This document shows positions 2,688 through 19,541 of a DNA stretch of 64,000 nt, in pieces. The DNA is from an uncultured delta proteobacterium (lineage in GTDB: Bacteria; Desulfobacterota; BSN033; UBA1163), in contig CAWHBU010000007.1 in NCBI GenBank assembly GCA_963827685.1, forward strand, positions 177,129 to 241,128, given 5' to 3'. How positions within the stretch are numbered: position 1 is the stretch's first letter; each line of letters opens with the position of its first letter. Below the pieces are notes generated by a model. The model was not told the DNA's origin. It did not search any database and saw nothing but the letters and a program-made list of their open reading frames with translations. Position numbers and translations under genes: made by a program.

Positions 2688-2712
2688 AAAGGCGTCCGAA
2701 AGGACGCCTTTC
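2688..2712 (+). terminator. Intrinsic terminator (hsp20)
   Basis: AAAGGCGTCC-GAAA-GGACGCCTTT hairpin. Confidence 0.8.
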
Positions 2713-2858
2713 CTCAATTTAGCCAACCCTCTTTCCTATCCCCATCCCTTATCCCGAAATCCGCAATCTGCATTCTGCAATCTATTATTATACTATCTCC
2801 TTATATCCTCATATAAATATCTGTGATCCGCTATGCCCCATGCGCTCTGCGTGCATTT

Positions 2859-2888
2859 GGAATCGGCCAACTTTTTTATCGGTGACAC
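2859..2888 (+). repeat. Boundary motif A, copy 1
   Basis: GGAATCGGCCAACTTTTTTATCGGTGACAC. Confidence 0.75.
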
Positions 2889-3130
2889 TACGATTGCGAA
2901 CTCAAGGATAATGATTTGACCCCATTCCGCCGTCCCAGCGATGAGTCCTATTCCTTCGAGTCAATCTTGGTCAATGATTCTTGAGAACGTCAGATGGTCC
3001 TAAAAAGGAAAGTAGGTTATAATAGAGGCAAAATATGAGGTGAAAAGCAGAATAAAAGTTGCTTTCAGAACGATATACAACCAAATTCCAATCCCCATGA
3101 TCTCACAGGGACAATTTTGGGGAGCTTAAT

Positions 3131-3313
3131 GTGAAATGCGATCGATGTAACGGGATGATGATTCATGAGGAGTTTTTCGGTTCAAATGGTCCCTTCTTTA
3201 GCTGGCGGTGCTTAATTTGTGGAGAGGTTGTCGATCAGACGATCATAGAAAATCGGGATCATCAGAGCCACGGCGGGGAGTGGGACAGAAGAGGCAAGAA
3301 ATCGAAGAGATAA
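3131..3313 (+). CDS. Small CxxC...CxxC zinc-ribbon-like protein
   Basis: 60 aa, KCDRC...WRCLICG; GGGAG RBS; GTG start. Confidence 0.7.
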   Translation: MKCDRCNGMMIHEEFFGSNGPFFSWRCLICGEVVDQTIIENRDHQSHGGEWDRRGKKSKR

Positions 3314-3386
3314 TCCCATCTCAACCCTCCCAATCATTTTTCCATTAACCCATTAACTCATTTACGCGTTAACTCGTCTACGGTTA

Positions 3387-3417
3387 GGAATGGGCCAACT
3401 TTTTTATGGATGCCACC
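3387..3417 (+). repeat. Boundary motif A, copy 2
   Basis: GGAATGGGCCAACTTTTTTATGGATGCCACC, 20 bp from the PIN toxin stop. Confidence 0.8.
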
Positions 3418-3436
3418 GGCAATTCATTTCTTACTC

Positions 3437-3859
3437 TCATGAAACATACTCCAAAAACTCTTGTGGAGAAACAACCTTGCATGAAATTCCATTGGCTTTC
3501 AGTTTGTCGTGCGAAATACTAAGCAAGTCCTTGTCTCCTGTGACCAGGAATTCGGCTCCTGTCTCTTTACACAAAGAGAGATAATGATCATCCTTGGGAT
3601 CCCTTGATAAAACCACATGAGTTGAAATAGAAATGTGCTTCGCCAAACTTAACAATTGTTGGATTTTCTCCCGGAGAAATAGAATTTGGTCATTTGAAAG
3701 TTTTTTCGAAAGTCCCAAAATGACTCCTTGGAGCTCTCGTTCGATAGTGTCAGAAAGATAGACCTCATGATCTTCCAATGCCCGAACAACAGCCTCTAAG
3801 GGTTTTCCCCCAAAGGCAGCCGAGATGATTACGTTGGCATCGATAACGACTTTAGCCAT
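3437..3859 (-). CDS. PIN-domain toxin (type II TA)
   Basis: VVIDANV, RDPKDD and LVTGDKDLL motifs; overlaps the antitoxin stop. Confidence 0.88.
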   Translation of the reverse strand: MAKVVIDANVIISAAFGGKPLEAVVRALEDHEVYLSDTIERELQGVILGLSKKLSNDQILFLREKIQQLLSLAKHISISTHVVLSRDPKDDHYLSLCKETGAEFLVTGDKDLLSISHDKLKANGISCKVVSPQEFLEYVS

Positions 3860-4085
3860 AGATTTCCCGCCTGGCACGGTCGAGGGCTTTGAGGGCTTCC
3901 TTTTTTGAGATCCCAGCTTCTGCCAGGACCCTTCCAATTTCAAGAAGGATAATCTCTCCACTGTCTTTCTGGACAGGGGTTAGGCGGGCAATCGGTTTCT
4001 TACGTTTCATGACAACGATCTCGTTGCCTCCATTTAAATATTTGACCACATCCTGTTTGAACTCCCTGACACCTACGAATTTCAT
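3852..4085 (-). CDS. Phd/YefM-family antitoxin
   Basis: MKFVGVREFK...IVVMKRKKPIARLTP; directly upstream of PIN gene; GGAGG RBS. Confidence 0.85.
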   Translation of the reverse strand: MKFVGVREFKQDVVKYLNGGNEIVVMKRKKPIARLTPVQKDSGEIILLEIGRVLAEAGISKKEALKALDRARREIYG

Positions 4086-4197
4086 TTTCCTCACCTCCGA
4101 AAATAATGTTACCACAAATGTGGGAATAATGCAAAAGGTCTTTGATGGAGTGCCTGGAGTGGTGTCGGTCAGTTTCTACGGAGGCAAGAATCTTTAT

Positions 4198-4293
4198 TGA
4201 AAAGTAGAAGCACTTAAAAAAGTGTGCTTCCCGGAGAGGTAATTATCATTCCATATTGTGCGCTCGGCAGCGCACCTTCCGGCCAGTCAGGCG
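4198..4293. repeat. Module B copy 1 (paired with 12860-13021)
   Basis: AAGCAC..GTGCT and GTGCGC-TCGGCA-GCGCAC hairpins, CCAGTCAGGCG end. Confidence 0.7.
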
Positions 4294-4334
4294 TTATGGT
4301 TTTTCTTTGAGCTTTCAACTTTAAACTTTGAGCT

Positions 4335-4523
4335 TTACGCTATGCTCTATGCGCCATGCCCTTTGCGGTTTTTGTTTTGATGAGCCTTTTTATAGATGAT
4401 TCATTCTCCCCAACACCGCGTCTCCCTATCTCCTCGTCTCCCAAGCATCTTCTTATTGTCACCCTATCTCCCTATCTCGCCATCTTTCTTTTGGAGAGGG
4501 CCAACTTTCTTATGGATGAGCCC
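4335..4523 (+). repeat. ~180-bp direct repeat (left of glnK) ending in motif A copy 3
   Basis: Aligns with 8148-8322 (TGCCCTTTGCGGTTTTTGTTTTGATGAGCC...TTCTCCCCAACACCGCGTCTCCCTATC...GGCCAACTTT). Confidence 0.8.
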
Positions 4524-4595
4524 GTAGCTTCTGTAGCTTTTGCATAAACCAGACACCCTAAGTCTTCATCCAACGACCACCCCCTCCGCCTTCAT

Positions 4596-4988
<393 letters not shown>

Positions 4989-5027
4989 TTAAACTATCAA
5001 GTTCTTTTCTCCGAACTCCAGACTTAA

Positions 5028-6338
5028 TTAAAAAGAATATCCTACTTCGCCATGCTGACTGGTATCCAGACCACTGATCTCATGCTCTTCACTCACTCTC
5101 AAGCCCATGGCCCAATCAAGGACCTTCAATATGATCCATGTTACCACAAAGGAATAAACCCATACTGAAACGACGCTGAGTGCCTGAATCCCAATCAGCG
5201 AAGGATTGCCAAAGAGTAAGCCGTCATTTCCTGCTGAATTAATTGCCCTTGCTGCAAACAAGCCGGTGGCCAATACCCCCCATGTGCTTCCTACTCCATG
5301 AACAGCGACGACATCGAGAGAATCATCGTATCCGAATTTGGTCTTCAGGTTGAGGGCATAATAGCATAACACACCCGCAACCAGTCCAATGATGATCGCT
5401 GAAATGGGCCCCACGAATCCTGAGGCAGGTGTGATGGTCGCCAGTCCTGCTACGGCACCCGATGCCGCACCAAGAACGGTTGGGTTACCCCTGTCTGCCC
5501 ATTCAGCGATCATCCACGAAAGAGCTGCGGAGGCTGCGGAAAATTGAGTCGCTACAAAAGCAGACGTGGCAAGCGAACCCGATGTTAGGGCACTCCCGCC
5601 ATTGAAACCAAACCAGCCAAACCAGAGAATCCCTGCACCCAGAAGGGTCATCGTCAGATTGTGAGGAGGCATGTCTTCTTTACCGTAACCTTTTCTTTTT
5701 CCCACGACCAGAGCCGCCGCTAAGGAGGCAACTCCAGCGCTGATATGGACGACCAGCCCCCCTGCGAAATCAAGCCCGCCAAGATTTTTGATCCAACCCC
5801 CCACTCCCCAGACCCAATGTGCAAGGGGGTCATAGACAAATGTTGACCAGAGGATGAGGAAGACAAGATAGGTCTTAAATTTAAATCTTTCAGCAAATGC
5901 GCCAGTAATCAGGGCGGGTGTGATCACAGCAAACATCATCTGAAAGATCATAAAAGCCTGATGGGGAACTGTGGCAGAATAGCCAGGGAACGGATCAAGT
6001 CCCACACCTCTGAGTCCTATCCAATCAAGATTTCCAATCACATGACCCACATCAGGTCCAAACGCGAGACTGTATCCGTAGAAAGCCCACTGGATAGTGA
6101 TCACTCCCAGTGCAATAAAACTTTGCATGATCGTCCCCAGGACATTTTTTGATCTCACCAAACCTCCGTAGAAAAGGGCAAGCCCAGGCATCATCAACAT
6201 CACCAGGGCGGCGGAGATGAGAAGCCAGGCAATATCTCCCGAATCCATTTTGGGGAGTGAGGGGGCCGGTGCCTCGGCAAAAGCAACCCCGGCGATGAAC
6301 AGGCTCATCAACAACGACAGGAATAGGATTTTTTTCAT
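5028..6338 (-). CDS. amtB: Ammonium transporter
   Basis: PGLALFYGG, DFAGGLVVH, WFGWFGFNGGS, DDSLDVVAVHG; signal peptide after ATG 6338. Confidence 0.95.
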   Translation of the reverse strand: MKKILFLSLLMSLFIAGVAFAEAPAPSLPKMDSGDIAWLLISAALVMLMMPGLALFYGGLVRSKNVLGTIMQSFIALGVITIQWAFYGYSLAFGPDVGHVIGNLDWIGLRGVGLDPFPGYSATVPHQAFMIFQMMFAVITPALITGAFAERFKFKTYLVFLILWSTFVYDPLAHWVWGVGGWIKNLGGLDFAGGLVVHISAGVASLAAALVVGKRKGYGKEDMPPHNLTMTLLGAGILWFGWFGFNGGSALTSGSLATSAFVATQFSAASAALSWMIAEWADRGNPTVLGAASGAVAGLATITPASGFVGPISAIIIGLVAGVLCYYALNLKTKFGYDDSLDVVAVHGVGSTWGVLATGLFAARAINSAGNDGLLFGNPSLIGIQALSVVSVWVYSFVVTWIILKVLDWAMGLRVSEEHEISGLDTSQHGEVGYSF

Positions 6339-6427
6339 TACACGCCTCCTATGAAAAATTGCGGAATAAACCATCAAATACCTTCCATGCCACCTTATTG
6401 TCAAGAGCCCCCGATGTCGCGTATCAA

Positions 6428-8048
6428 CGGGCTGTTGCCCAAATGATACTTGCAACGATTATACATTCGAGCTATAAGCATGGCAGCACAAATCTGGAAT
6501 GGAGATATTGCCATGATGGGACAACAGACAGGAATTCAGCCGAAGATCTTCTATCATCATATGAACCTGGAACAAAGGATTCCCCGGACACACCTTCTGA
6601 GAAGGATTCAAGAGCAGATTGACTTTAACTTCATCTATGCAGAGGTCAGAGACACCTATGGGGGCAACGGGAATGTGTCCATTCCCCCTCCTGTAATCCT
6701 GAAGATGATGTTGCTGTTAGTTCTTTACAATGTTCGATCGGAACGAGAGTTAATGGAAACGATCCCCATGCGTTTAGACTGGCTATGGTTTTTAGGGTAC
6801 GACATAGACAGTGAGGTGCCGGATCACAGTGTTTTGAGTAAAGCCAGGGCGCGGTGGGGAGTGGAAGCGTTTAGGGGGTTCTTTGAGCGAATGGTGTGGC
6901 AATGTGTGGAGGCGGGGTTAGTGGACGGCAGAAAGATCTTTGTGGATTCGAGCCTGGTGGATGCGGATGCATCGAACAACTCCGTGATCGACACGCGATC
7001 GTTGAAGGTTCAACTCCAGGAGGGCTACAAGAAGCTGGAAGCACGATTAGAGGAAAAGAGCGAGAGCACGGATTCCTCCAGGAGATACGTTAAAGAGAAC
7101 AGCCGATACATTTCAACGACCGATCCGGATGCATCGATAGTGAATCGTGGCAAGCCCAAACTCTCCTATCAGGTTCATCGGGCAGTGGATGAGCGGAGTG
7201 AAGTGATCACGGCGATCGAAACGACAACAGGAGATGTCAATGAAGCGCATGAGATGATTCCTCTGATAGAGAGCCACCGTTTAAATACAGGGATCAATGC
7301 GGATACGGTGGTGGCCGACAGCAAATACGGGACGATCGAGAACTTTTTGGCCTGTCATGATAGAGGAGTAGAGGCCCACATGCCGGACTTGAGGGAAATT
7401 TCATTGAAGCGTACAGAAAAGCAGAATATCTTTGGGGAAGAGCGGTTTGAGTATGATCGGGAGAGTGACACCTATCGTTGTCCGGCTGGGCATCGGTTGA
7501 AGCCTAGATCATTACATATGAGTCGGCAAAGTAGAGATTACGCTGCACCCAAGAAGATTTGTGCAGCATGTGACTTAAGAGAGCAGTGTACTAGAAACAG
7601 ATCAGGTCGGACAATTAAGCGACATCTGAGGCAGGAAGATCTAGACAGGATGCGAGAAGCGAGTCGATCGGCCAAAGCGAAGCGGGATATCAAAGTGAGG
7701 CAGCATTTGATGGAGCGTTCCTATGCCAGAGGGACGCGGTATGGATATGACCGGGCACGATGGAGAGGGCTTTGGCGGGTGCAGATACAGGAATACCTGA
7801 TCTCTGCTGTCCAGAACATTGAGGTTTTGCTTAGGTACGGATCTTACCTAAAGAGAAGTCCATCGGTGATGATGGAGCAGATCAAAGGGGCTGTGACAAG
7901 GGAGATAAGGTCCTTTTCAGATTTTAAGGAGCTAATGAACTCAAAAATTGGCCGAATGGTGCTATTTGGTTTTACTTACCCTCGGCTATCATTCATGGAA
8001 ACTCAAACTGTCAGATATTTTTGAATTGGGCTTTTGAGCAACAGCCCG
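6428..8048 (+). mobile_element. IS1182-family insertion sequence
   Basis: Terminal IRs CGGGCTGTTGCCCAAA / TTTGAGCAACAGCCCG; 4-bp target duplication TCAA (6424-6427, 8049-8052). Confidence 0.9.
6513..8024 (+). CDS. IS1182-family DDE transposase
   Basis: PDHSVLS, FVDSSLVDADAS, STTDPDA, VVADSKYG, CPAG...C..C...C. Confidence 0.9.
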   Translation: MMGQQTGIQPKIFYHHMNLEQRIPRTHLLRRIQEQIDFNFIYAEVRDTYGGNGNVSIPPPVILKMMLLLVLYNVRSERELMETIPMRLDWLWFLGYDIDSEVPDHSVLSKARARWGVEAFRGFFERMVWQCVEAGLVDGRKIFVDSSLVDADASNNSVIDTRSLKVQLQEGYKKLEARLEEKSESTDSSRRYVKENSRYISTTDPDASIVNRGKPKLSYQVHRAVDERSEVITAIETTTGDVNEAHEMIPLIESHRLNTGINADTVVADSKYGTIENFLACHDRGVEAHMPDLREISLKRTEKQNIFGEERFEYDRESDTYRCPAGHRLKPRSLHMSRQSRDYAAPKKICAACDLREQCTRNRSGRTIKRHLRQEDLDRMREASRSAKAKRDIKVRQHLMERSYARGTRYGYDRARWRGLWRVQIQEYLISAVQNIEVLLRYGSYLKRSPSVMMEQIKGAVTREIRSFSDFKELMNSKIGRMVLFGFTYPRLSFMETQTVRYF

Positions 8049-8147
8049 TCAAGATCAGGCACCTATGCGAGGCAAAACCTGGAGGAAAATTGTCCCGTGT
8101 CAAGGGGCTGACCCCAGGCCACATTCCTAAATTCCTTTTATCACTCC

Positions 8148-8322
8148 TTACGCTATGCGCTTTGCCCTTTGCGGTTTTTGTTTTGATGAGCCTTTTCATG
8201 GATGATTTATTCTCCCCAACACCGCGTCTCCCTATCTTCCCATCATCTTCTTATTGTCTCCCTATCCCCTCATCTCCCCATCTTCATTTTAATGGGAATG
8301 GGCCAACTTTTTTGTGGATGAG
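8148..8322 (+). repeat. ~180-bp direct repeat (right of amtB/IS) ending in motif A copy 4
   Basis: Partner of 4335-4523; ends GGAATGGGCCAACTTTTTTGTGGATGAG. Confidence 0.8.
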
Positions 8323-8463
8323 AATCGTATTCGCTCTGCGATTTTGACGTTCAAATTGGGGTTCTAAACCTGAAATCAGCCTCCTTTTTTTAGAAATGAC
8401 TAATTCGATCAGGCGGCTAACTTTGTCCGATCCCAGCCCCGCCTACTTAAGTTGTTTTAGAAC

Positions 8464-9669
8464 CTACGTTATATATTCTTTTAGGTGAAGGGTCCCCTCC
8501 GTTTCGGGCCATTTCCCATCTCCTTTGCGTCCCCTTGTTTGAGCAGTTAGAATCTCTCGGCCGAAATGATCTCGCAGCCATTTTTTCAAGCCCGGAATCT
8601 CTTCCATCTCTCTTATCGACCGGGGATTTTTCAAAGCGAGACCATTGATCAAGGCGTTGTTCAAAAGGATTCCAGGCTCCATCCCTAAGTTTTTTGCCCG
8701 CATATCCCGCCAGGTTTTTAGTGCTTTGACCCTTTTGCGTAAGAGGGGTGACAAATCCGGCTTTGCCTCCCGGGGGTACACCGGAAGATCTTCATCGGGA
8801 ATGGCCATGGCCCGGTGAATTTCCTGCAGCAGGCGTGTCCCATATCTGTCGATTTGCTTCCGGCTCAGGACTTTTCCCGTTTCCAATTCTTCAAGGCGCA
8901 AAGGTTTTTTCATGGCCAATTCCAGGAGGGGTTCGTTGCGGAGCACCTTGAAGGGGGGAAGATCCGACTTCTGGGCCTGGGCCTCTCGGAATTCCAGCAA
9001 AGCCTCCAGAACCGCAAGACTCCTGGGATCCAGGAGAAAAGCCCCTTTCACTTTTAGGTAAAGCGGGTCATGGCTGGGGAGAGTGAATCGGACCTTACTC
9101 AGAAATAGGCATTCTTCCTCCATCCAGGATAATCGGCTCTTCTCTTCCAGTTCCTTTTCCAGCATACGGGCTAAGGGAATCAGGTACATGCCGTCCATCG
9201 CTGCGTATTCCACCATCTCCGGGGAAAGGGGTCTTTGGGACCAATCGGCCCGCTGATATTTCTTATTCAGCTCCACATGGACCCGACTTCGCAGCAACGC
9301 TTCCAGGCCGCTCTCCCGGAGGCCCAGAAATTTACAGGCCAACTGTGTATCGAAGAGGTTCTCGACCTCGAGCCGAAAGTCCCGGTACAGGGAACGGATA
9401 TCATAATCCGCCCCGTGGAATACTTTGCGGATGCGGGGATTGGAGAAAACGGGGTGTAAAGCGGAAAGATCCCTTAGCGCCAAAGGATCAATGACATAAG
9501 AGGCGGATTCCGTAGCGATCTGTATGAGGCATACCTTTTCGAAGTAGTGGTACAAAGAGTCCGCTTCCAGGTCAACCCCGATGATTTTGGCCTGACCCAG
9601 AATCCGGGCAGCCCCTTCCAATTGCGGAAGGGTCTCGATCCATTCATAGGAAAATTTATTTCCATCCAT
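8464..9669 (-). CDS. rnd: Ribonuclease D (DEDDy exonuclease + HRDC domains)
   Basis: GVDLEADS, FHGADYD, LFDTQLA, DWSQRPL..YAAMD; two HRDC-like C-terminal regions. Confidence 0.88.
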   Translation of the reverse strand: MDGNKFSYEWIETLPQLEGAARILGQAKIIGVDLEADSLYHYFEKVCLIQIATESASYVIDPLALRDLSALHPVFSNPRIRKVFHGADYDIRSLYRDFRLEVENLFDTQLACKFLGLRESGLEALLRSRVHVELNKKYQRADWSQRPLSPEMVEYAAMDGMYLIPLARMLEKELEEKSRLSWMEEECLFLSKVRFTLPSHDPLYLKVKGAFLLDPRSLAVLEALLEFREAQAQKSDLPPFKVLRNEPLLELAMKKPLRLEELETGKVLSRKQIDRYGTRLLQEIHRAMAIPDEDLPVYPREAKPDLSPLLRKRVKALKTWRDMRAKNLGMEPGILLNNALINGLALKNPRSIREMEEIPGLKKWLRDHFGREILTAQTRGRKGDGKWPETEGTLHLKEYIT

Positions 9670-9781
9670 CCTCTTACGCGCCTTCTTCCATCATGGTTTT
9701 GGTCTTACCGCTCTACTGTGAGGCCCGCCTCCATTTATTTAAATAATCTTGTTAATTTTTGCGGGCCTGACCCCACATTCC

Positions 9782-9973
9782 TTACAGTATTTTTTTAACC
9801 CGACCAATTTCACCACTTTCCAAGCGGACTTTAATACCATGGGGGTGAGTAGGAGATTTCGTCAGAATGTCTTTCACTATACCTTCGGTTAGCTTCCCAG
9901 AATGCTGGTCTTTCTTTAATACAATTAAAACCTGTAAGCCTGCTTTCACATCTGCACGATTTGTACCGTCCAT
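9782..9973 (-). CDS. YwbE-family protein
   Basis: LKKDQ.SGKLTEG.VKDILTKS.THPHGIKVRL. Confidence 0.9.
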   Translation of the reverse strand: MDGTNRADVKAGLQVLIVLKKDQHSGKLTEGIVKDILTKSPTHPHGIKVRLESGEIGRVKKIL

Positions 9974-10139
9974 GCTTCCACTTTCATTAAAAACTATTTT
10001 AACCTCAAATTTGCAGCCCTAAGCCCCAAATTGCCTATATTTTTCTCCAAGAAATTTACCAATGGAAAAAATGGAGATTTGACCCCTATCCTTCCTGACG
10101 CCATGCCCCAAGCTCCATGCGCCATGCAGTGTATTAATC

Positions 10140-10170
10140 GAATTGGGCCAACTTTTTTATGGATGACACC
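10140..10170 (+). repeat. Boundary motif A, copy 5
   Basis: GAATTGGGCCAACTTTTTTATGGATGACACC. Confidence 0.8.
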
Positions 10171-10229
10171 TCTTGACTGCACGCTCTGCACGAACGTCCC
10201 TATAGTTTTTCTGACACCGAAGCTTTTTT

Positions 10230-10943
10230 TTAATATAATCTATCCTGGATATTGTCAATCAGCTTATTAAAATAATTTGGCACTTTGGTTTCAAAAGTCA
10301 TCTGCTCGCCGCTGGTGGGGTGTTTGAAAGAAATCGATTTGGAATGAAGCGCTAAACGCCTGTACCCATTCTTGGTTTTACCATATTTACGATCGCCTAC
10401 GATCGGATGTCCCTTATCAGCCATATGTACGCGTATCTGATTCTTCCTGCCGGTCAAGAGATTAATCTCCAGCAGACTAAACTGCTTGGTCTCTTTAAGC
10501 ACCTTATAAGCAGTATGTGCCAGTTTGCCTTTTGTGACATCCGTTGTGGAATAGACGACATAAGCCTTGTTCTCAGACAGGTATGAGGTAATAATTCCCT
10601 CTTTTTGGGCCAACTGACCATAAACCACCGCAACATATTTCTTTTCCGTGCCTTTCCACTGAGCCTGCAAATGGTACTTAACTTCTTCGCTTTTTGCAAA
10701 TATCAGTACGCCGGATGTCCACTGGTCCAGCCTATGAACAATGAAAATTCGGTTTCGCGACTTTAGAGAGCCTTTGCGTACATAATCGGTTAGAATGTAG
10801 TAAGCCGTCTTGAATTTATTAGTCTCCGTCCCCACTGTCAATAGCCCCGCAGGCTTATCTACCACCAAGATATCTCTATCTTCGTAGAGTATTTCTAACC
10901 CTCTTGGCAGATGTTTGCTGGTCGAACGTTTTTTCTTAAGCAT
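10230..10943 (-). CDS. RluA-family pseudouridine synthase (copy 1)
   Basis: DKPAGL, HRLDQWTSG, TGRKNQIRVH, GHPIVGD, LALH. Confidence 0.92.
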   Translation of the reverse strand: MLKKKRSTSKHLPRGLEILYEDRDILVVDKPAGLLTVGTETNKFKTAYYILTDYVRKGSLKSRNRIFIVHRLDQWTSGVLIFAKSEEVKYHLQAQWKGTEKKYVAVVYGQLAQKEGIITSYLSENKAYVVYSTTDVTKGKLAHTAYKVLKETKQFSLLEINLLTGRKNQIRVHMADKGHPIVGDRKYGKTKNGYRRLALHSKSISFKHPTSGEQMTFETKVPNYFNKLIDNIQDRLY

Positions 10944-11176
10944 ACTGAGTACTCTTCTATCTTGTGCAAGTTTACTTGTGCAGGTTATAGCCTATTGCCA
11001 CATTGCTATCGAGTCACAAAGCATGAGGAGTAATAAAGGGGACGGTTCTATTTATTTAGATTCTTTTGCAATATTGCAAGCCTGACCCCACATTCTTACA
11101 TCATCTTCACTTTTTATGGATGACACCACTAATCTATTATGTAGATTAAATCGATGATTTGTGATATTATTAATTT

Positions 11177-11380
11177 GTGAACAGGAAGCCTTTGATTCAA
11201 GCAAATCCTTATCTAAAAGATCCTGCAAACCGGCAAAGACTACTCTCCATAGCGGTTTCTTCTTCTACAGCCATTGAAGGAATTCATAGAGTATTGCCAG
11301 AAGCTATCCGTTTTCGTCCCATAGCAGCCAAATCCGTTATACTTCGTGAACCCGTCGTGTCCTACGGATCACGGCGCTGA
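11177..11380 (+). CDS. Small hypothetical protein (Fic-associated type)
   Basis: KPLIQANPYLKDP...VSSSTAIEGI; overlaps a Fic remnant convergently. Confidence 0.6.
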   Translation: MNRKPLIQANPYLKDPANRQRLLSIAVSSSTAIEGIHRVLPEAIRFRPIAAKSVILREPVVSYGSRR

Positions 11381-11447
11381 AGACTCTCTCCATGGGCTTA
11401 TAGTCTCGATCCAAAGCCGATGCATCATGATGTCCACCCTTTTTCAT
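11337..11447 (-). pseudogene. Internally deleted Fic-family gene
   Basis: MKKGGHHDAS joined to ALDRDYKPMERVFSAVIRRTRR*, resembling the N- and C-termini of Fic proteins (from recall). Confidence 0.55.
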
Positions 11448-11527
11448 TATGAATCATCTTTCTCCGCTGTTGTCTCATTTTCCCCCGCGTTCCGAATTCC
11501 GCACTCCACATTCCGAAATCCGCAATT

Positions 11528-11641
11528 GGAGCGGCCAACTTTTTTATGGATGACCTAAATCCCTTTTAAGATTCTTATAATTTTATGGACGCCCCCTCTG
11601 ATCTCTATCAAGCAAAGTGTATAATGTAGCTTTGACCCCAA
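11528..11641 (+). repeat. Motif A copy 6 plus 109-bp block repeated at 13246-13354
   Basis: Identical apart from one base; ends TTTGACCCCAA. Confidence 0.9.
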
Positions 11642-11680
11642 AGCCCCGCCACATAGTTTTTCTGACACCGAAGCTTTTTT

Positions 11681-12394
11681 CTAATATAATCTACCCTGGA
11701 TATTATCAATCAGCTTATTAAAATAATTTGGCACTTTGGTTTCAAAAGTCATCTGCTCGCCGCTGGTGGGGTGTTTGAAGGAAATCGATTTGGAATGAAG
11801 CGCTAAACGCCTGTACCCATCCTTGGTTTTACCATATTTACGATCGCCTACGATCGGATGTCCCTTATCAGCCATATGTACACGTATCTGATTCTTCCTG
11901 CCGGTCAAAAGATTAATCTCCAGCAGACTAAACTGCTTGGTCTCTTTAAGCACCTTATAAACAGTATGTGCCAGTTTGCCTTTTGTGACATCAGTTGTGG
12001 AATAGACGACATAAGCCTTGTTCTCAGACAGGTATGAGGTAATCATTCCCTCTTTTTGGGCCAACTGACCATAAACCACCGCAACATATTTCTTTTCCGT
12101 GTCTTTCCACTGAGCCTGCAAATGTAACTTAACTTCTTCGCTTTTTGCAAATATCAGTACGCCGGATGTCCACTGGTCCAGCCTATGAACAATGAAAATT
12201 CGGTTTCGCGACTTTAGACAGCCTTTGCGTACATAATCGGTTAGAATGTAGTAAGCCGTCTTGAATTTATTAGTCTCCGTCCCCACTGTCAATAGCCCCG
12301 CAGGCTTATCTACCACCAAGATATCTCTATCTTCGTAGAGTATTTCTAACCCTCTTGGCAGATGTTTGCTGGTCGAATGTTTTTTCTTAAGCAT
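11681..12394 (-). CDS. RluA-family pseudouridine synthase (copy 2)
   Basis: Same motifs as copy 1; 229/237 residues identical. Confidence 0.92.
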   Translation of the reverse strand: MLKKKHSTSKHLPRGLEILYEDRDILVVDKPAGLLTVGTETNKFKTAYYILTDYVRKGCLKSRNRIFIVHRLDQWTSGVLIFAKSEEVKLHLQAQWKDTEKKYVAVVYGQLAQKEGMITSYLSENKAYVVYSTTDVTKGKLAHTVYKVLKETKQFSLLEINLLTGRKNQIRVHMADKGHPIVGDRKYGKTKDGYRRLALHSKSISFKHPTSGEQMTFETKVPNYFNKLIDNIQGRLY

Positions 12395-12534
12395 ACTGAG
12401 TACTCTTCTATCTTGTGCAAGTTTACTTGTGCAGGTTATAGCCTATTGCCACATTGCTATCGAGTCACAAAGCATGAGGAGTAATAAAGGGGACGGTTCT
12501 ATTTATTAAGATTCTTTTGTAATATTGCAAGCCT

Positions 12535-12802
12535 GATTCCAGATCTTGTTGAGCTTTTAGCCCCGTTTCCTTTTCCTCCATGAGTTGAGAGCAGAGATTG
12601 GAGCAGGAAGTAAAAGAACTATAGCCACAAATGGCGCTGCCTACGAAAGGCCTTTGATAAAAGCATTTGCAGCCATACTTTGAAAAGCAATCGACGGCAA
12701 TATGAATCTTAGGAACAAAAATGCAATGCCGGACACTAAAACACTTACCCACCAGGGGCATTCAACAAGTAAATTGAGTATAGATTCATCTTTTCGCGCC
12801 AT
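12535..12802 (-). pseudogene. N-terminal remnant of membrane-anchored Mrr-like restriction endonuclease
   Basis: MARKDESILNLLVECPWWVSV... two TM helices; internal stop at 12641, frameshift, truncated at the RluA repeat edge. Confidence 0.55.
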
Positions 12803-12859
12803 CAACTGCCTCTCAATTTCTAAACATTGAGACGTACACCTAGTTTTTAAGAACTTGAC

Positions 12860-13021
12860 TGAAAAATGGAAGCACCTAAGAGAATTGTGCTCCCCGGAAA
12901 GGGTCACCCCGTTAGAAATTCCAGTCGTTACGACTCCAAACAGAGCGGGGCATTATTTCTAACGGGGTAAATATCTTTTCATATTGTGCGCCCGGCAGCG
13001 CACTTGCCGCCCAGTCAGGCG
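12860..13021. repeat. Module B copy 2
   Basis: Aligns with 4198-4293 once the 12906-12968 insert is removed. Confidence 0.7.
12906..12968. mobile_element. 63-bp palindromic MITE-like insertion
   Basis: ACCCCGTTAGAAAT...ATTTCTAACGGGGT terminal IR; absent from module B copy 1. Confidence 0.75.
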
Positions 13022-13239
13022 CTTTGCATCTCTTGACTACAAAATTCAGTCAACGACTACTCAACGATTCTAAGACTCAATGACCCAATGACCGATTTAT
13101 TCTTGATGCCGTACCCCCTACCCTTTCTGCGCTGCCCTCGCGCAAAATCATCGAGCAGTTTCTTTCTTCAATCTGAAATCTGCAAACTGAAATCGCGACT
13201 CAGCATAAATTCCGCATTCGGCAATTCGCATTCCGCAAT

Positions 13240-13354
13240 GGAATAGGCCAACTTTTTTGTGGATGACCTAAATCCCTTTTAAGATTCTTATAATTTTATG
13301 GACGCCCCCTCTGATCTCTATCAAGCAAAGTGTATAATGTAGCTTTGACCCCAA
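13240..13354 (+). repeat. Motif A copy 7 plus 109-bp block
   Basis: Partner of 11533-11641. Confidence 0.9.
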
Positions 13355-13387
13355 GGTCCCCTCCAATAGCCTATTGACTCATCGCCC

Positions 13388-13420
13388 GAATTACCGGCCA
13401 ACTTTTTTACGGATGACACC
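13388..13420 (+). repeat. Boundary motif A, copy 8
   Basis: GAATTACCGGCCAACTTTTTTACGGATGACACC. Confidence 0.8.
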
Positions 13421-13478
13421 AGAGATCAATTTCTAAAAGCTTAACTTGTTGAATGTTGCGAAGTCCTTTTTGGTTAGC

Positions 13479-14276
13479 CTATTGGATCTTTTTTACTCTT
13501 TCCACTATTTTGGGCAGGATGTCTCCGGTTTTTCCTTGAATGAGATAATCTGAAATTCTTCTAGTCAAAGGAGTGGGCTCGGCATTTACTTCAACGATGA
13601 TTGTGCCCGGATTAGCTATCTGTGGTAAACTGGCAAAAGGATAAACGACAGCCGAGGTCCCACAAATTAGCATTAAATCGCATTTCCAAGCCTCTCTTTG
13701 ACTTCCTTCAAGAACGTCACTTGGAATGGGTTCCCCGAAGGAAACGACATCACCTTTGATCACTCCTCCACATTGGCAATAAGGAGGAAGCTTCCCCTCC
13801 ATTCTAATTTTCTCTAAACTGAGTTCATCTTTGCTGAACCTTCTATTACATACGACACACCTTAACTTATTAATGCCTCCATGGTACTCAATCGTTTTCT
13901 TGCTCCCTGCCTTTTCATGTAATCCATCTATATTTTGGGTAATGACGCATTTTAATATTCCCATTTTCTCGAGTTCGGCTAAAGCGTCATGTCCAGGATT
14001 AGGTTGAAACTTTCCAATCTCCCCAAGAATTGAGAAGAGCCTCGACACAGAGCTCTGAGGGTCCAGTCTTTCTTCCCAATATCTTGTTGGATTCGCCTTG
14101 AATTGCTCATAGACTTCATACGCCTTCATTTCAGCTTCAGGATTTTTGGTCCAAATTCCGTCTGGGCCACGGAAATCAGGGATTCCCGATTCGGTTGAAA
14201 TCCCAGCACCGGTTAAAGCTATCCCGTATCTCGCCTTGATTAAATCTTGGGCTGCCCTTTGTATTAAATCTTCCAT
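13479..14276 (-). CDS. cobB: Sir2-family NAD-dependent deacylase
   Basis: GAGISTESGIPDFRG, ITQNIDGLH, HG..CxxC..CxC, GTSAVVYP. Confidence 0.9.
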   Translation of the reverse strand: MEDLIQRAAQDLIKARYGIALTGAGISTESGIPDFRGPDGIWTKNPEAEMKAYEVYEQFKANPTRYWEERLDPQSSVSRLFSILGEIGKFQPNPGHDALAELEKMGILKCVITQNIDGLHEKAGSKKTIEYHGGINKLRCVVCNRRFSKDELSLEKIRMEGKLPPYCQCGGVIKGDVVSFGEPIPSDVLEGSQREAWKCDLMLICGTSAVVYPFASLPQIANPGTIIVEVNAEPTPLTRRISDYLIQGKTGDILPKIVERVKKIQ

Positions 14277-14535
14277 CTCCTATCTCCTCATCCAGCAATT
14301 TGAGCATATTTGAAAAACTAACTTGTTGAACGTTGCGGCCTGCCCCCGAAGTCTTCGCATTTTTATAGATGATACCGGTTTGCGATAGGTCTATTTCTTA
14401 AATAACTTAACTACGTCCCCGAGGTCCGTCACTGATCTTTCGCGTCAACAAATAAGTCAACAAAAAAATAAGGACCCCTGCTATCACTGCGATGAGGGCA
14501 ATAGTGTTACTTTCTATTTTTTTTCTTGAAGAAAT

Positions 14536-15180
14536 CTAAGGCCGCCATACATTGATAGGCTTCAATGCAGCATATAGATCTTCCGTGAAAAGTCTATCCG
14601 ACTCACTGGCGTCCGCGGCGCCGGATGGGTGATTGTGCGCCATGATCACCATGCTTGCGTTCGCCTGCAACGCCCGCGCCACAATCAATCGGATCTGTGG
14701 CCTGGCTTGGTCAACCGACCCGACAGCAAGCAAAGCGTCTTCAAGTAAAGTCCCGCGCCGATTCAGGAACAAAGCCCTAAAATGCTCCTCGGGAAGTCCC
14801 TGTAATCGTGATTGCAGGTATTCCGCAGCTGCATGTGTATTCTTTAGTGACAGCCGATATCGCACATCTGGGAGTGATATGCGCCGGCCAATCTCCATGG
14901 CCGCCGCCAACTGCGCTGCCTTTGCAGCTTTCAAACCCCTAACTTCCAGTAGGGCCGAAAGCGGAATCCCAGCCACTGCTCGGAGGGAACCAAATCTCCT
15001 AAGGATTTGCCGCGCCAATTCAACGGCACTCGTACCCTTGACGCCCACGCGGAGAAGGATCGCCACAAGTTCAGCGTCTGTCAAAGCTTGCGCCCCTTGG
15101 CGTAACAGCCGCTCCCGTGGCCGTTCATTCTCCGGCCAAGCCACAATGCCTTTTGACTTATTTTTTGCTAATTTAGACAT
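14536..15180 (-). pseudogene. radC: RadC (JAB domain) protein, C-terminally truncated
   Basis: ERPRERLL, ELVAILLR.G, HNHPSG..ASESD present; the usual terminal LLDHxI segment is missing. Confidence 0.75.
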
Positions 15181-15246
15181 TTCAACTTGCCTGTAGGGGT
15201 CCGGGGGACGTTGTTCAATTCTTTCACTAATTTTCCCTTCGGATAT

Positions 15247-15322
15247 CTCATCCACCCTCACCCTCTTTACCGTAAGGCGCAAGGCGTAAGTCATAAGACG
15301 CAAACAACAAAAAAGCCCATTC
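15247..15322 (-). repeat. Boundary element type 2
   Basis: Minus strand GAATGGGCTTTTTTG...heptamers...GGTGAGGGTGGATGAG. Confidence 0.65.
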
Positions 15323-15366
15323 TTTTTTAGAACAGGCTTAAGTTTGACGCAAAATCAGTGCCCATA

Positions 15367-15747
15367 TTATTCCAACCCGATAGGCAAATTCCTATATCTG
15401 GCAGATGTCTCATCAATCGTGACGACGACCCCTTCTTCTAACTCCTTCTCCATAGTGGATACGACTTCAATAATACGAGATGTAACAAGATCAGGTCTTG
15501 GATTCTCAAGACGAAGGTTTATGAGGCTTGGCTTTCCATATCCGCTTAATGCCAAGATTGCAGAAAAATCAAGATCTTGTGTAATGACTACCTTGTTTTG
15601 CTGTTGTGCATAGATAAGAATGTCTATGTCTTTGCTCCCTCTGTCCATTACCTCGGAAACCCGAACAATATTCCACCCGTTTTTTCTCAACTGTTCAACG
15701 GTCAAAGGAGAGATATTCATATCGGTGAGGAATTCAAGCCTAGGCAC
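15367..15747 (-). CDS. DUF5615 PIN-like toxin
   Basis: FLTDMNISP, DIDILIYA, VVITQDLDF; coupled to DUF433. Confidence 0.85.
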   Translation of the reverse strand: MPRLEFLTDMNISPLTVEQLRKNGWNIVRVSEVMDRGSKDIDILIYAQQQNKVVITQDLDFSAILALSGYGKPSLINLRLENPRPDLVTSRIIEVVSTMEKELEEGVVVTIDETSARYRNLPIGLE

Positions 15748-15985
15748 CTGCGACTCCTTTTATTGGAATCGGTTTTGCCTTCTCTGAAGAGAGCCAAGCC
15801 GCGTACTTTAAGGCTTGAACGACGTCCTCTTCTTCAAGTTCTGGATAAACCTTCAAAATTTCTCGCGTTGTCATCCCACTGGCAACGAGTTTGAGGATAA
15901 CTGAAACGGTTATCCTCATTCCTCGAATAGTGGGTTGCCCGAGGCAAACCTCTGGATCAATGGTTATCCGATCGAGTTCTTTCAT
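15740..15985 (-). CDS. DUF433 antitoxin
   Basis: RITIDPEVCLGQPTIRGMRITV...YPELEEEDV.QALKYAA. Confidence 0.9.
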   Translation of the reverse strand: MKELDRITIDPEVCLGQPTIRGMRITVSVILKLVASGMTTREILKVYPELEEEDVVQALKYAAWLSSEKAKPIPIKGVAGA

Positions 15986-16067
15986 AGGTTTAATCTCCTA
16001 ATCTTTTTGTTATTATATACACCAAATTACAAAAAATAGAAATAACAATGCAGGATAGGAGCGAAAT

Positions 16068-16204
16068 CTCATTCCCCCTCACCTTTCAATTGCTACCAAC
16101 TTCTCGTATAGAGCATAGCGCAGAGCGCATAGCGTTGGCTCTCGATCGCAAGCGTAAAGCGCAAGGCGTAAGCCGTAAGACACAAAAACAAAAAAGCCCA
16201 TTCC
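16068..16204 (-). repeat. Boundary element type 2
   Basis: Minus strand GGAATGGGCTTTTTTG...heptamers...AGGTGAGGGGGAATGAG. Confidence 0.65.
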
Positions 16205-16370
16205 ATTAATACCGTGATTCGTGGCCCCCTCAACCCACCGGGGCCGAAAACGGCGTGTTCCGTGTCCGTAAATCATTGAAAAACAAAAAGCCCATCCCAT
16301 TAATACAGTGATTCGTGACCCCCTCTACTCACTGGGGCCGAAGACGGCGTGATTCGTGAATCGCAAATAA
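16186..16370. repeat. Two ~95-bp tandem units
   Basis: AAACAAAAAGCCCAT.CCATTAATAC.GTGATTCGTG.CCCCCTC...GGGGCCGAA.ACGGCGTG repeated. Confidence 0.8.
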
Positions 16371-16398
16371 AACCAAAACGCAAGACATGAGGTAACAC

Positions 16399-16953
16399 CT
16401 AACTTTTCCTCTTCATTTTTGTGACATAAGGAACTTTAGGCTCTTCTACCAGAAAACCTATTCGTTTCTTTGGCGGTTCGGGCTCTGGCGGTGCCATTAA
16501 CTGGCGGATAGCATCGAAAACTATTTTGAACTGGGCATCGTATTTCTTTTCCAGGGCATCCAGCCTCCTGGCCAAATCTGTGTGCTGTGATATAATCTCC
16601 CGGAGTTTTGCAAAGGTCCGCATGATCTGGATATTGACCTGCACAGCCCTGGGACTGTTCAAAACACTGGATAGCATGGCCACACCGTGCTCTGTAAAGG
16701 CATAAGGGAGTGCCCCGCCAAAATACTTCTTGTGTGGTATCACATTTTGTGATACCAAGCGCTCCGCCTCAGCACTATTAAGCTGAAACATAAAATCTTC
16801 AGGAAACCTACTGATATTTCTCTTGACTGCCTGATTTAACACCCTTGTTTCAACCTCATAGAGTTCAGCCAAGTGCGTACTTAACATAACCTTTTGCCCA
16901 CGAATCAATAAAATTCGCCGCTCAATGACCCCTAAAGGAACAAGTGTCTCCAC
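16399..16953 (-). CDS. ORF6N-domain DNA-binding protein
   Basis: [53 protein letters not shown]. Confidence 0.9.
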
Positions 16954-17044
16954 TTAGCCACCTCGAGGATATCACAAATTGTGATCACCTTTAGCTTATC
17001 AAATATCTAAGGCCATACCAGGAAAACAAAAAGCCCACTTCCAC

Positions 17045-17445
17045 TCCACAATTGAACCGGCAATTTTCTGCTTGGTTTTAACCGTCAATAATTGCCATTG
17101 TTTCTTGTTCTGCAGAACAGCAGTCAATTGTGGAGCTGCTGCCTCCACAATCTATGGATAGGTTAAGTAGAATTGCCGGTACCTGTAAAGTTCACGACGA
17201 TCACACCGGGAAAGACCAAGTTTCCTGAGAGTTTCGGAAAGATCATCCATGAGCCTTTCACCCTATTTGGCACGATCCACTCCTAAACGCTCATATCGTT
17301 CAATGTAATAGCCGATAGCCCAGTTTCTCAGCGTCAGGCTGATATTGACCGCTTTGCTTGCTTGAGCCGAAAAAAGATCATGGGCCTTCCGTATAGATAA
17401 GACCAATTCGGCAAAAGTTAAATTTGTTTTCTTCTGCGTGCTCAT
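17045..17445 (-). pseudogene. YhcG/DUF1016 N-terminal remnant
   Basis: KAVNISLTLRNWAIGYYI...RAK*GERL...LYRYRQFYLTYP*; in-frame stops, nuclease domain absent. Confidence 0.75.
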
Positions 17446-17735
17446 AAATATTCTGCTTTCAGCTTGGTTTTGCATTCAGGACAGCAGAACGTGTTTTCGT
17501 TTACCTTTATAAAACGCAGCCCAGTATCCTTAACGGCATGGTCCTTCTTATGATAGGTAAACAGGCTGCCATCAAAGGCAACGTCTTCTATCAAGCCGCA
17601 GGTACATTCCAGTAATTCTCTATCATGAGTGAATAGACCGATTGCTTCTGCCTGTTCTTTTACCTTCACAAGCCTTCTTACCAATGGCTTCAGGTCGGAC
17701 AGGGAGGAACCATCATCATGGGTTTTTTCACTCAT
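17442..17735 (-). CDS. Hypothetical protein with CxC/CPEC zinc-ribbon
   Basis: DRELLECTCGLIED...FCCPEC; GGAAGGA RBS; overlaps next start. Confidence 0.65.
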   Translation of the reverse strand: MSEKTHDDGSSLSDLKPLVRRLVKVKEQAEAIGLFTHDRELLECTCGLIEDVAFDGSLFTYHKKDHAVKDTGLRFIKVNENTFCCPECKTKLKAEYL

Positions 17736-17833
17736 TCCTTCACCTCCAGCCTCACAAGTGGAACAGGGACGGTGGTTCTAAAACAACTTAGGTCCGAGGG
17801 ACCAGGTCGAATTCTGTCACTTGTTTTTCCCTT

Positions 17834-18022
17834 TCAGAAGCCTCGTTCCCCATCACCTTTCAATTGTTCCGGAGTGCGCTCCTGTAACCACAGCTTGCAG
17901 ACATTCTTCCAACCTATCCTGCGCCATTTTTTAAAAACCGCCTTCAACTCGTTCAAGTCGTTTGCTTCCAGAAGATCTCTCTGGGCAGCTTTAAAATCTT
18001 CAAGAGATGCAATGGCCGGCAT
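17834..18022 (-). CDS. Small hypothetical protein
   Basis: 62 aa, GAGG RBS, FKKWRRIGWKNVCKLW. Confidence 0.6.
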   Translation of the reverse strand: MPAIASLEDFKAAQRDLLEANDLNELKAVFKKWRRIGWKNVCKLWLQERTPEQLKGDGERGF

Positions 18023-18138
18023 GGTCTACCTCAAAATACCGCAGAGCGCATAGCGCATAGCGTAAATTCTTTATCGTGAGGCGCGAGGCGTAAGTCGTAG
18101 AAGGGAAAGAATTTAAAAAGTACAATTCCAAACCTTGT

Positions 18139-18273
18139 TCAACGAAGCCAGCGCTCGATCGGCGTTTTCAAAAATTCCCCCACTGGAATTCCTTGCTCTC
18201 CGACCAAGAGCTGACGTTTTACCCGAAAGGCTTTCGATAAGGCTTCCATCCCGAGAAGACGGCCCACCGTATA
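18139..18273 (-). pseudogene. C-terminal remnant of AAA+/DUF4143 ATPase (copy 1)
   Basis: GMEALSKAFRVKRQLLVGEQGIPVGEFLKTPIERWLR*, resembling the recalled family C-terminus. Confidence 0.6.
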
Positions 18274-18316
18274 ACAAATTACTCAATATGCTGAGTATTA
18301 TTACTCAACGTAATTA

Positions 18317-19421
18317 ATACAAACGCATTAAGTAATGTTACATAGCCTACGAATCTTTTGACAAGACCATGAGCGAGTTGTTTTACAAACGACAGACCAA
18401 AGATTATCAAGGTTTTCAAACCAACGGTTGGTGGTGGATTCATAGCGAACACTGCGCCAAATCCGTTCTTGCACGTTTAATCCCGGTTGATACGGGGGTA
18501 AATATTCGATATGGAGCCTCGGATGTTTTTTAAGAAATTGTTCGATGGGATCGCCTCTGTGCCAGCGGGCCCTGTCGACATAAAGCCAAATGGTATATTC
18601 TTTAAACCTTCCATAGAGGTGGCGCAAAAGTTTGAGAAACCCTTCTCTATCCCCCCGTTTTGTCTGAATCATGCCATAGCGTCCAAGCAAAGGATTGACC
18701 CACCCAGAGATATTCAAACGGATACGATGCTGGCTGGTCGTGGGAATCTTAAGACGCTTTCCTTTTTTCGCCCAGCCCCGGCTAAGCCTGGGGTGCATCG
18801 TAAAGCCTGTCTCATCCTGGAATACAATTGTCTCTTTTGGCCCCAGGGACTCAAGTTTTTTTTAAAGCCCGCTGGAACTTTCGGGCTTCTTGGCTTTGTG
18901 CTTGAAGATAAGAATAACTCGCTCTCTTTAACCGATAACCCAAATGATGCATCCAGCGTTGGGCTTGCCGCACCTTCAGGTTTATCCCGAAAGACCGTTT
19001 CAGATGAATCGCAACCGTTGGCCCATCCCATTGAGTCCGGTTTAAACCAAATTCCCGCGGAGACTTCTCTAAGTGTCCCTCCAGCACCCTTTGAATCTTT
19101 GTCTCTAACCGTGGAGGCCTTCCCGATCTTGGCTTGGATTTTAAGAACTCTAAGCCGTCTTTGTTCACCCCGTGAATCCATCGGCTTAAACTCATCCGGG
19201 TCAACCCTAACACCTCGGTTATCCATCCCGGACGTTGCCCTTCAAGCACCAGGAGTAAGGCGGCTATCTTTATGCCTATCCAAGCCCCTGATATTTGTTC
19301 GGCTAATGCTAATAAATGCTCTTTATTGGCCTCTTTATGCTCTAAGATTAATGTGGGATTTTTCATGCCCACATATTAACATAAATAAACTGTTATGTCA
19401 CTTTATTTAGGACGTTTGTAT
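18317..19421 (-). mobile_element. IS630-family insertion sequence
   Basis: Imperfect 28-bp IRs starting ATACAAACG; TA duplication; empty site visible at 21084-21085. Confidence 0.92.
18328..19372 (-). CDS. IS630 transposase in two ORFs (HTH 18851-19372; DDE 18328-~18855)
   Basis: HTH with GRPPRL; FQDETG, VDRARWH, LPPYQPGLNVQERIW; frames switch at an A8 run (18856-18863). Confidence 0.88.
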
Positions 19422-19541
19422 TAGTAAATTAAGTACCTCAACCGTGAGCCGTGAGGCATAATCGACTAGACAGTTTTTTGGCCAGAGTGGTCTTGCCGAC
19501 ACCTGGTAACCCAATAATGTGAATGATGGGGAAGAGGCTCA

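Follow-up and report, generated by a model that had tools for sequence, protein, structure and literature searches.

The window analyzed here is a 64-kb stretch of DNA from an uncultured delta proteobacterium (G000:C7:177129-241128, where G000 is the source genome of 5.23 Mb), and within it a genomic island (2700–21390) carries an array of small gene cassettes separated by a short polar motif, together with radC, toxin–antitoxin pairs, and ORF6N and AbiEii genes. The island is flanked by aminotransferase, SOD, and Hsp20 genes on one side and by a U32 peptidase gene on the other. In the relatives G010 and G004 these flanking genes are adjacent except for one gene of 922–927 aa, which lies between the Hsp20 and U32 peptidase genes, and the motif is absent there; it is this adjacency that identifies window 2.7–21.4 kb as an island. 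Searching the window with the pattern GGCCAACTTTTTTRYGGATGA (≤3 mismatches) recovered eight matches, at 2865, 3393, 4499, 8301, 10146, 11533, 13246, and 13396, all eight on the + strand; shuffled windows averaged 0.01 matches, with none of 100 attaining eight. A first-pass annotation of this DNA had reported eight full and six partial copies, all on the + strand and none past 14.4 kb. All of them are present (its full-copy positions run 5–8 nt lower since it counted a GGAA-N prefix; the partials comprise four right-half-only and two TTTTATGGACGCC copies), and no copy occurs beyond 13416 at ≤3 mismatches, the window's last motif-derived sequence being a partial at 14360–14372.

All cassettes of the array are on the minus strand and all motif copies, full or partial, on the plus strand. 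Copy 1 (2865–2885; two mismatches) is the final one at the array's downstream end, in the direction in which the genes are read. Copy 2 (3393–3413) lies 24 nt beyond the stop codon of the PIN toxin gene in a PIN toxin–antitoxin cassette (3437–4115), and copy 3 (4499–4519) lies 77 nt beyond the glnK stop codon in a glnK (P-II)–amtB cassette (4596–6455) that is 95–98% identical to copies in three other species. A multi-copy insertion sequence (IS) with a DUF772/DDE_Tnp_1_6 transposase (6421–8055, + strand) sits upstream of amtB and is outside the system. Copy 4 (8301–8321) follows the rnd stop codon by 143 nt, next to cassettes (8464–9973) encoding an RNase D-like protein (8464–9669) and DUF2196/YwbE (9782–9973), and copy 5 (10146–10166) follows by 64 nt the stop codon of the first of two RluA-type pseudouridine synthase genes (copy A, 10230–10943). 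The second of these (copy B, 11681–12394) lies in an 892-nt block 97.8% identical to that of copy A. Motif copy 6 (11533–11553) is followed by a ~100-nt “cctaaatccc” module containing a second, partial copy (11580–11607), and copy 7 (13246–13266) by the same module with its own partial copy (13293–13320); these partials, beginning at 11580 and 13293, are the TTTTATGGACGCC copies (repeat family D5). Copy 8 (13396–13416) is 63 nt beyond the cobB stop codon of a SIR2/CobB cassette (13479–14276), and as only 150 nt separate copy 7 from copy 8, the unit between them is gene-free. The right-half-only copies (TTTTTATAGATGA) are found at 4387–4399 (112 nt left of copy 3), at 8193–8205 (108 nt left of copy 4), at 11111–11123 (the 5′ boundary of the duplicated rluA unit), and at 14360–14372 (between cobB and radC). 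The cargo names given earlier agree with Pfam (PIN and antitoxin, P-II and Amt, RNase D-like, DUF2196 [YwbE], two RluA, SIR2 [CobB], and RadC). The placing of copies 20–150 bp from the 3′ end of minus-strand cargo is borne out as well, six copies lying 24, 77, 143, 64, 128, and 63 nt from the stop codon of the neighboring minus-strand open reading frame.

The same motif forms further arrays elsewhere in the genome. At ≤2 mismatches the source genome holds 33 copies, against 0 for a backwards control pattern, and 30 of the 33 fall in four clusters that together occupy ~61 kb of the 5.23 Mb (three are singletons). Each cluster has one polarity (C1, five copies, −; C4, nine, −; C5, eight, +; C7, eight, +), i.e., these are single-polarity clusters, not single copies scattered in random orientation. 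Allowing four mismatches enlarges the clusters and reveals a fifth pair at C4:726–729 kb, and in 5/5 arrays of this genome the motif is on the C-rich strand—though, as most array genes are co-oriented, polarity with respect to replication is inseparable from polarity with respect to the genes. Among 41 genomes searched, the motif occurs in 21: the source genome, every one of the 14 further genomes of its genus, and 6 of 10 other genera in the family; it occurs in 0 of 16 genomes outside the family. An exact-match scan with one genome per species returned 88 stretches, nearly all from metagenome-assembled genomes labeled Thermodesulfobacteriota, delta proteobacterium, Syntrophales, or Syntrophaceae, and a few on short contigs binned to other groups.

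To compare arrays, we picked 31 regions from 14 genomes that hold several copies, in which 145 of 146 copies keep the polarity of their array. By a simple longest-open-reading-frame (ORF) rule, 116 of 139 copies have their next ORF to the right on the opposite strand, and 23 have it on the motif strand. Among these motif-strand neighbors are a PhdYeFM gene with Pfam support and a transporter block of eight genes, beside which the motif is not flipped; since it keeps the array's polarity next to reversed genes, polarity is a property of the array, whichever way the adjacent gene runs. The motif lies at a median distance of 70 nt from the stop codon (96 of the 116 copies at ≤150 nt), copy-to-copy spacing has a median of 1140 nt (quartiles 829 and 2006 nt), and gene-free mini-units, with 71–217 nt between copies, also exist.

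The anatomy of the motif was profiled from 80 aligned copies, drawn from the source genome and six related loci. The conserved block spans 25–34 bp and reads approximately (A/T)TTNGRAAG-GGCCAACTTTTTTATGGATGA-CACC, with moderate conservation at positions −9 to −1 (approximately WTTNGRAAG), strong conservation at positions 0–20 (partly built in, as these positions served to select the copies), and moderate conservation at +21 to +24 (CACC). Its right edge is abrupt, with information content dropping from 0.66 to 0.04 bit from +24 to +25, and its left side merges into a heptamer tract; identical 21-mers are found in several genera. The earlier remark that copies follow heptamer tracts stands in that tracts do precede them, and within arrays are almost confined to the immediate left of the motif, but tracts also occur genome-wide and so are not peculiar to it: 1388 period-7 tracts were called across the source genome at a low Tandem Repeats Finder threshold, 39 of them inside clusters. 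Such tracts recall the short tandem repeats of cyanobacteria. The heptamer-side sequence CGCTATGC is present in 30 of 145 left flanks vs. 33 of 3011 background chunks, and half sites favor the array strand (left-only, 8 vs. 1 on the control strand; right-only, 34 vs. 20). No second conserved motif was detected at the other end of the units (142 copies); an TTGCAAGACCTGACCCC element follows 10–19 of the 142 copies and is also dispersed elsewhere. A coding role was rejected, as the heptamer tract cannot keep a frame and ORFs spanning the motif are short.

Between the motif copies, cassettes are shuffled among arrays and species. Island cassettes recur on other contigs of other species at 90–99% identity, compared with 78–89% for the flanking core genes (aminotransferase, SOD, and Hsp20) in the same genomes, G003 alone being closer at 91–93%. 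One G011 array carries, in order, a unit of the source genome's C4 array, the window's PIN pair, the window's glnK–amtB cassette, and a unit of the C1 array. Conversely, the C1 array of the source genome and the G010:C2:193-kb array have a groEL flank in common and share zero cassettes at ≥85% identity. Within the source genome, the C4 and C5 arrays share a nitroreductase unit of 1116 nt at 98.2% identity. Both content and order of the cargo therefore differ among relatives; an invariant cargo, which the first-pass annotation had named as fatal to its proposal, is not what we find. Metagenome contigs aligned to the array show many joints between different motif copies, with a shorter side of merely 21–27 nt; these are other cassettes with the same motif, not rearrangements of the window array. 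No transcript ends were obtained from RNA contigs aligned to the array.

Where the joints fall was addressed with 118 between-array alignments (≥250 nt and ≥85% identity). Seven begin within −19 to +2 of the motif in both partners, and six finish at +19 to +27 in both. Among cassette pairs that sit in different contexts (35 and 42 pairs), which flank is shared also switches across the motif, with modest effect: when the motif is 3′ of the shared gene, agreement of the right flank is ~0.35–0.5, where the baseline is 0.27, and the left flank shows no such agreement, and when the motif is 5′ of the shared gene this pattern is reversed. One clean single-unit indel was seen: where G004 has motif–unit–motif, G010 has a single motif whose left flank is that of the first G004 copy and whose right flank is related to the one beside the second. 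This indel has two variant positions, which weakly hint that a crossover would fall between GGCCAAC and the T run.

Taken at its plainest, the feature is real and lineage-wide, and it is junction-like within integron-like arrays, yet it fails every integron-defining test. Against the attC core (RYYYAAC … GTTRRRY, 50–150 nt apart), a GTTGGCC-like inverted partner accompanies only 2 of 42 copies, and any GTTRRRY within 140 nt is found for 11 of 142 copies vs. 13 of 142 control segments. Motif-strand DNA folds of 33 copies as a single-strand hairpin have z around 0, and sense-strand RNA folds a mean z of −0.18. A loose attC scan over 454,127 bases of arrays gave five hits, 0 at a motif, and the same scan as a positive control found two attC beside intI in locus L159 and one in L160. 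An attC array, whether an integron or a cluster of attC sites lacking integron integrases (CALIN), is accordingly rejected: there is no hairpin, no core partner, and IntI does not track the motif. These results bear out the first-pass statement that the motif is neither palindromic nor an attC. Locus L159 (G013:C108, 9768–13611) is itself a canonical integron, with a full-length intI (430 aa, with an N-terminal extension), divergent cassettes, and two GCCTAAC…GTTAGRC attC hairpins; as these attC stand beside intI within the same genus, true integrons coexist with the motif arrays and use ordinary attC.

Other known sites fare no better. The candidate dif of the source genome (G000:C2:737718, located with a consensus search pattern) is ordinary and shares merely TTATG with the motif. 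An origin from tRNA or tmRNA was rejected, the best ungapped match over 50 such genes covering 17 of 31 positions; tRNA genes lie within 30 kb of the C4 array alone. The motif is not a repeat of the repetitive extragenic palindromic (REP) or bacterial interspersed mosaic element (BIME) type, being non-palindromic and with 30/33 copies in four clusters, nor a miniature inverted-repeat transposable element, as 1 of 146 copies is inverted and neither a second conserved end nor a target duplication was found. On the possibility of a known IS end, the comparison covered the sole in-array IS family (DUF772/DDE_Tnp_1_6), which starts at least 20 nt off the nearest motif copy; copies of IS200 and of the 433-aa DDE element lie beside the arrays. 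An IS200/IS605-type element was rejected on other grounds (no motif-linked hairpin; 18 identical IS200 copies scattered, one next to the C1 array), as was the 433-aa DDE transposase found at the edges of arrays, which belongs to an ordinary IS present in eight identical copies. Neither a sigma-70 promoter nor an intrinsic terminator is predicted above shuffles, with 0 matches on full motif copies, and Rfam gave no relevant match over window 1–22000 at E ≤1.

We tentatively favor, with confidence just short of even, the reading in which the motif serves as recognition and crossover site for an integron-like, non-integron gene-cassette recombination system whose enzyme acts in trans. In such a system, one- or two-gene units with a median length of 1.1 kb, most of which bring an upstream region of their own, would be joined head to tail through direct copies of an asymmetric double-stranded site, and recombination between two copies would excise, insert, or reorder units; the enzyme would be encoded away from the arrays, either trans-acting or on a transient element. 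Recombination of this kind would explain why array content and order differ between species and the site and its polarity persist. Polarity, anatomy, the range of lineages, the distinctness from attC, and shuffling at the level of cassettes are shown directly; the crossover within the motif and the dedicated enzyme are inferred. The more specific proposal—a site-specific cassette system of Syntrophales-related Thermodesulfobacteriota that uses a linear, asymmetric, double-stranded 25–34 bp site, not a folded attC, and operates beside canonical integrons with a recombinase encoded in trans or transiently carried—we regard as possible, and hold at clearly less than even confidence.

Several observations weigh against this reading. 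The motif bounds homology at only 13 of 236 alignment ends, the rest falling across the spacer or in coding sequence. An extra 1-kb unit of G004 is bounded not by the motif but by direct repeats (~110 nt) of a hairpin-rich module, and another indel swaps the entire spacer. In high-identity pairs, the 30–110 nt from motif to stop codon are usually not inherited with the gene (this stretch is one of several alternative modules), and in old, diverged cassettes the motif copies have changed about as fast as the background (3 of 21 positions where the cassette is 81% identical). The dyad of the site is only weak (CCA…TGG), which is unusual for tyrosine or serine recombinases, and no excised-circle junctions were seen among the metagenome-contig matches listed. 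Nor did an enzyme emerge. The source genome has no serine recombinase, and within 10 kb of its arrays, or of those in the two-contig G010, there is no recombinase at all. IntI (TIGR02249) exceeds its cut-off in 12 of 41 genomes, unrelated to motif counts, and gives no hit in G002, G005, G007, G008, or G012 despite their 4–24 motif copies; in the source genome and G010 it is only a fragment of 135–141 aa. A three-recombinase element is present in 7 of 24 family genomes, unrelated to the motif, and was rejected.

The earlier statement that the window has no integrase is correct and can be widened, as tyrosine recombinases are absent from the whole contig C7; the co-occurrence with a tyrosine or serine recombinase that it had suggested looking for did not materialize near the arrays. 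The tyrosine recombinases of the source genome comprise a XerC/D-like pair, three copies of the three-recombinase element, three small paralogues, several phage-type integrases, and the IntI fragment. IntI was rejected as the enzyme because its counts do not track the motif and no motif lies beside intI loci: there is none within 7–9 kb of the source-genome fragment, and no motif-like sequence within ~1.5 kb of 13 intI loci (L017–L029) or of that fragment, the hits in L029 being array copies only, at least 5.6 kb from intI. The fragment in the source genome and G010 (G000:C3:782919-783275; G010:C1:720662-721045) is a common C-terminal piece scoring 191 bits over model positions 188/197–315. 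Across the family genomes, IntI is also the sole tyrosine recombinase that shares a contig with the motif (G011:C108, G013:C108, and G021:C250, two of them orthologous), where 5–11 kb separate intI from the motif, downstream and on the same strand; in G011:C108, the one annotated, housekeeping-type genes lie in this interval. We treat this contig sharing as a lead, not as evidence. The three small paralogues (~200 aa, without an N-terminal domain; G000:C4:172548-173156, C6:132834-133430, and C2:692523-693119) stand alone beside ORFs of 1051–1086 aa and several short ORFs; they are possibly the invertases of type I restriction systems subject to phase variation.

The absence of an enzyme from these searches and the spread of block ends over the spacer are what a mosaic intergenic repeat would lead one to expect. 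Under that explanation, which we consider unlikely though the strongest competitor, no dedicated enzyme exists, and the motif is one module beside heptamer tracts, hairpin elements, and the TTGCAAGACCTGACCCC element, offering portable short homologies for RecA-type recombination, slippage, or uptake repair in islands that tolerate exchange. Spacers are indeed built of several independently assorting repeated modules, and the G004 unit between hairpin-rich repeats and the whole-spacer swap fit this explanation. Against it, 21–34 bp is the lower limit for general recombination, and sharp-edged, exact conservation across genera is hard to obtain without sequence-specific recognition. The other modules are scattered genome-wide, whereas the motif is confined to arrays and strictly polar (145/146). 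For the first-pass proposal of a repeatedly used recombination or insertion site, then, part stands—the motif is polar and intergenic and marks joints of independently assorting units—and part, the motif as the crossover site of a dedicated enzyme, stays a hypothesis, with no recombinase found near the arrays, no excised circle among the matches listed, and some indels bounded by other modules.

The position of the motif invites a different explanation, that it is a cis-acting expression element of each unit (e.g., a factor-dependent terminator, insulator, roadblock, or part of an unusual promoter) and that the shuffling has another cause. Its short distance past the stop codon would suit such a role, as would its place, with a gene end on one side and, on the other, the heptamer tract and the upstream region of the following gene; the gene-to-motif gap lacks an intrinsic terminator, so another terminating signal would be useful there. 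Yet neither strand forms a hairpin, the sense strand bears an A run and not a U run, full copies carry no sigma-70-like match, and sigma-54 spacing misfits by eye. Array polarity is kept beside the reversed genes, copies occur in tandem with no gene between, and Rfam offers nothing, which together make a cis-acting role doubtful indeed. Least probable of the explanations weighed is the conserved end of a non-autonomous, one-ended or rolling-circle transposable unit with a variable far end and a transposase elsewhere: the abrupt end of conservation at +24/+25, the richness of the source genome in active transposases (IS200 included), the C-rich strand bias that strand-specific single-strand mechanisms expect, and six block pairs (the C4/C5 unit among them) homologous from just past the stop codon, across the gene, its upstream region, and the heptamer tract, up to the far edge of the motif are set against the lack of a subterminal hairpin of the HUH-enzyme type and of any second conserved end or target duplication found, the ordinary, multi-copy, and scattered nature of the IS families seen, none of them array-specific, and seven other block pairs in which the motif moves with the gene on its other side.

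Set beside known systems, the favored cassette reading has partial precedents. Sedentary chromosomal integrons and CALINs likewise consist of head-to-tail, mostly co-oriented units of one or two genes and ~1 kb with a polar repeat between them, are rich in toxin–antitoxin genes, vary in content and order among relatives, and include some arrays without a nearby integrase. They differ in that the motif is linear and asymmetric (25–34 bp), with no hairpin, no inverted RYYYAAC/GTTRRRY pair, and no link to IntI, and in that the toxin–antitoxin units examined in the motif arrays carry their own promoter-like sequences. The pdif modules of Acinetobacter plasmids are small gene modules bounded by ~28 bp Xer/dif-like sites that alternate in orientation, with the recombinase encoded elsewhere; the likeness lies in small modules bounded by a site of ~28 bp, but the motif is unlike the candidate dif (TTATG alone in common) and its copies are all direct. 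REP/BIME repeats of enterobacteria and the intergenic mosaic elements of Neisseria are lineage-specific, palindromic or inverted, and genome-wide, and some are targets of recombination or integration. The motif resembles them as a lineage-specific short repeat forming mosaics in intergenic spacers, and differs in being non-palindromic, limited to a few arrays, and strictly polar. Tycheposon islands of Prochlorococcus arise by repeated integration at one att site with older elements pushed inward, leaving direct att repeats and integrase-less cargo, integrase-bearing elements being rare and transient; there, the repeats consist of partial tRNA genes, and a tRNA gene marks the start of each island (bioRxiv 10.1101/2020.12.28.424599). 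The motif arrays share with them stacked cargo without an integrase between direct repeats, and differ in that the motif matches no tRNA or tmRNA, most arrays lack a nearby tRNA gene, and the units are much smaller. Neither orientation of the motif sequence matched published papers, and the accessible portions of the literature on integrons or cassettes in Syntrophales, Syntrophaceae, or Desulfobacterota, or on repeats in Syntrophus and Smithella, contain no description of it.

Further features of the island and its surroundings were recorded alongside. At window 8464–8539, homology of the RNase D-like gene to relatives (92–96% identical) stops 61–75 nt inside the 3′ end of the ORF, and the last 20–25 codons seem to have been replaced in the source genome. 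Two units (4225–4336 and 12877–13052) have, between heptamer tract and gene, a dispersed GTGCGC…GCGCAC hairpin element followed by a terminator-like hairpin; the element has >30 partial copies in the source genome, and in a wetland metagenome the bin that holds it far exceeds the others in contig depth (4499.8 vs. 14.9–1534.5). A long, near-perfect palindrome occupies the aminotransferase–SOD gap (1109–1201), its only matches being sub-threshold hits, on both strands, to hairpin models of microRNAs. An 80-nt repeat (family D6) follows the ORF6N gene as two tandem copies, 86% identical (16185–16358). A 1.1-kb repeat (18312–19425) has at least five other 100% identical copies in the source genome, and as its 299-aa ORF has no Pfam match, we read it as probably an IS with an unrecognised transposase type. 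At the upstream edge of the C4 array, a CD-NTase (DncV-like) gene precedes one for a SEC-C-motif protein (G000:C4:501211-502931; L035 3212–4929), a pair that may be a defense unit of the cyclic-oligonucleotide-based antiphage signaling (CBASS) type.

To our knowledge, integrons, defined by IntI and a folded attC, are the sole well-understood platform that stacks single genes into exchangeable arrays. The motif arrays combine an integron-like layout and signs of cassette turnover with an unfolded site, in a lineage that also has true integrons. If no enzyme exists, they still show a short polar repeat organizing flexible islands. If one were found, the arrays would represent a second, independent solution to gene capture, and would explain the exchange of accessory genes between species of uncultured syntrophic anaerobes of peat, wetland, and sediment.

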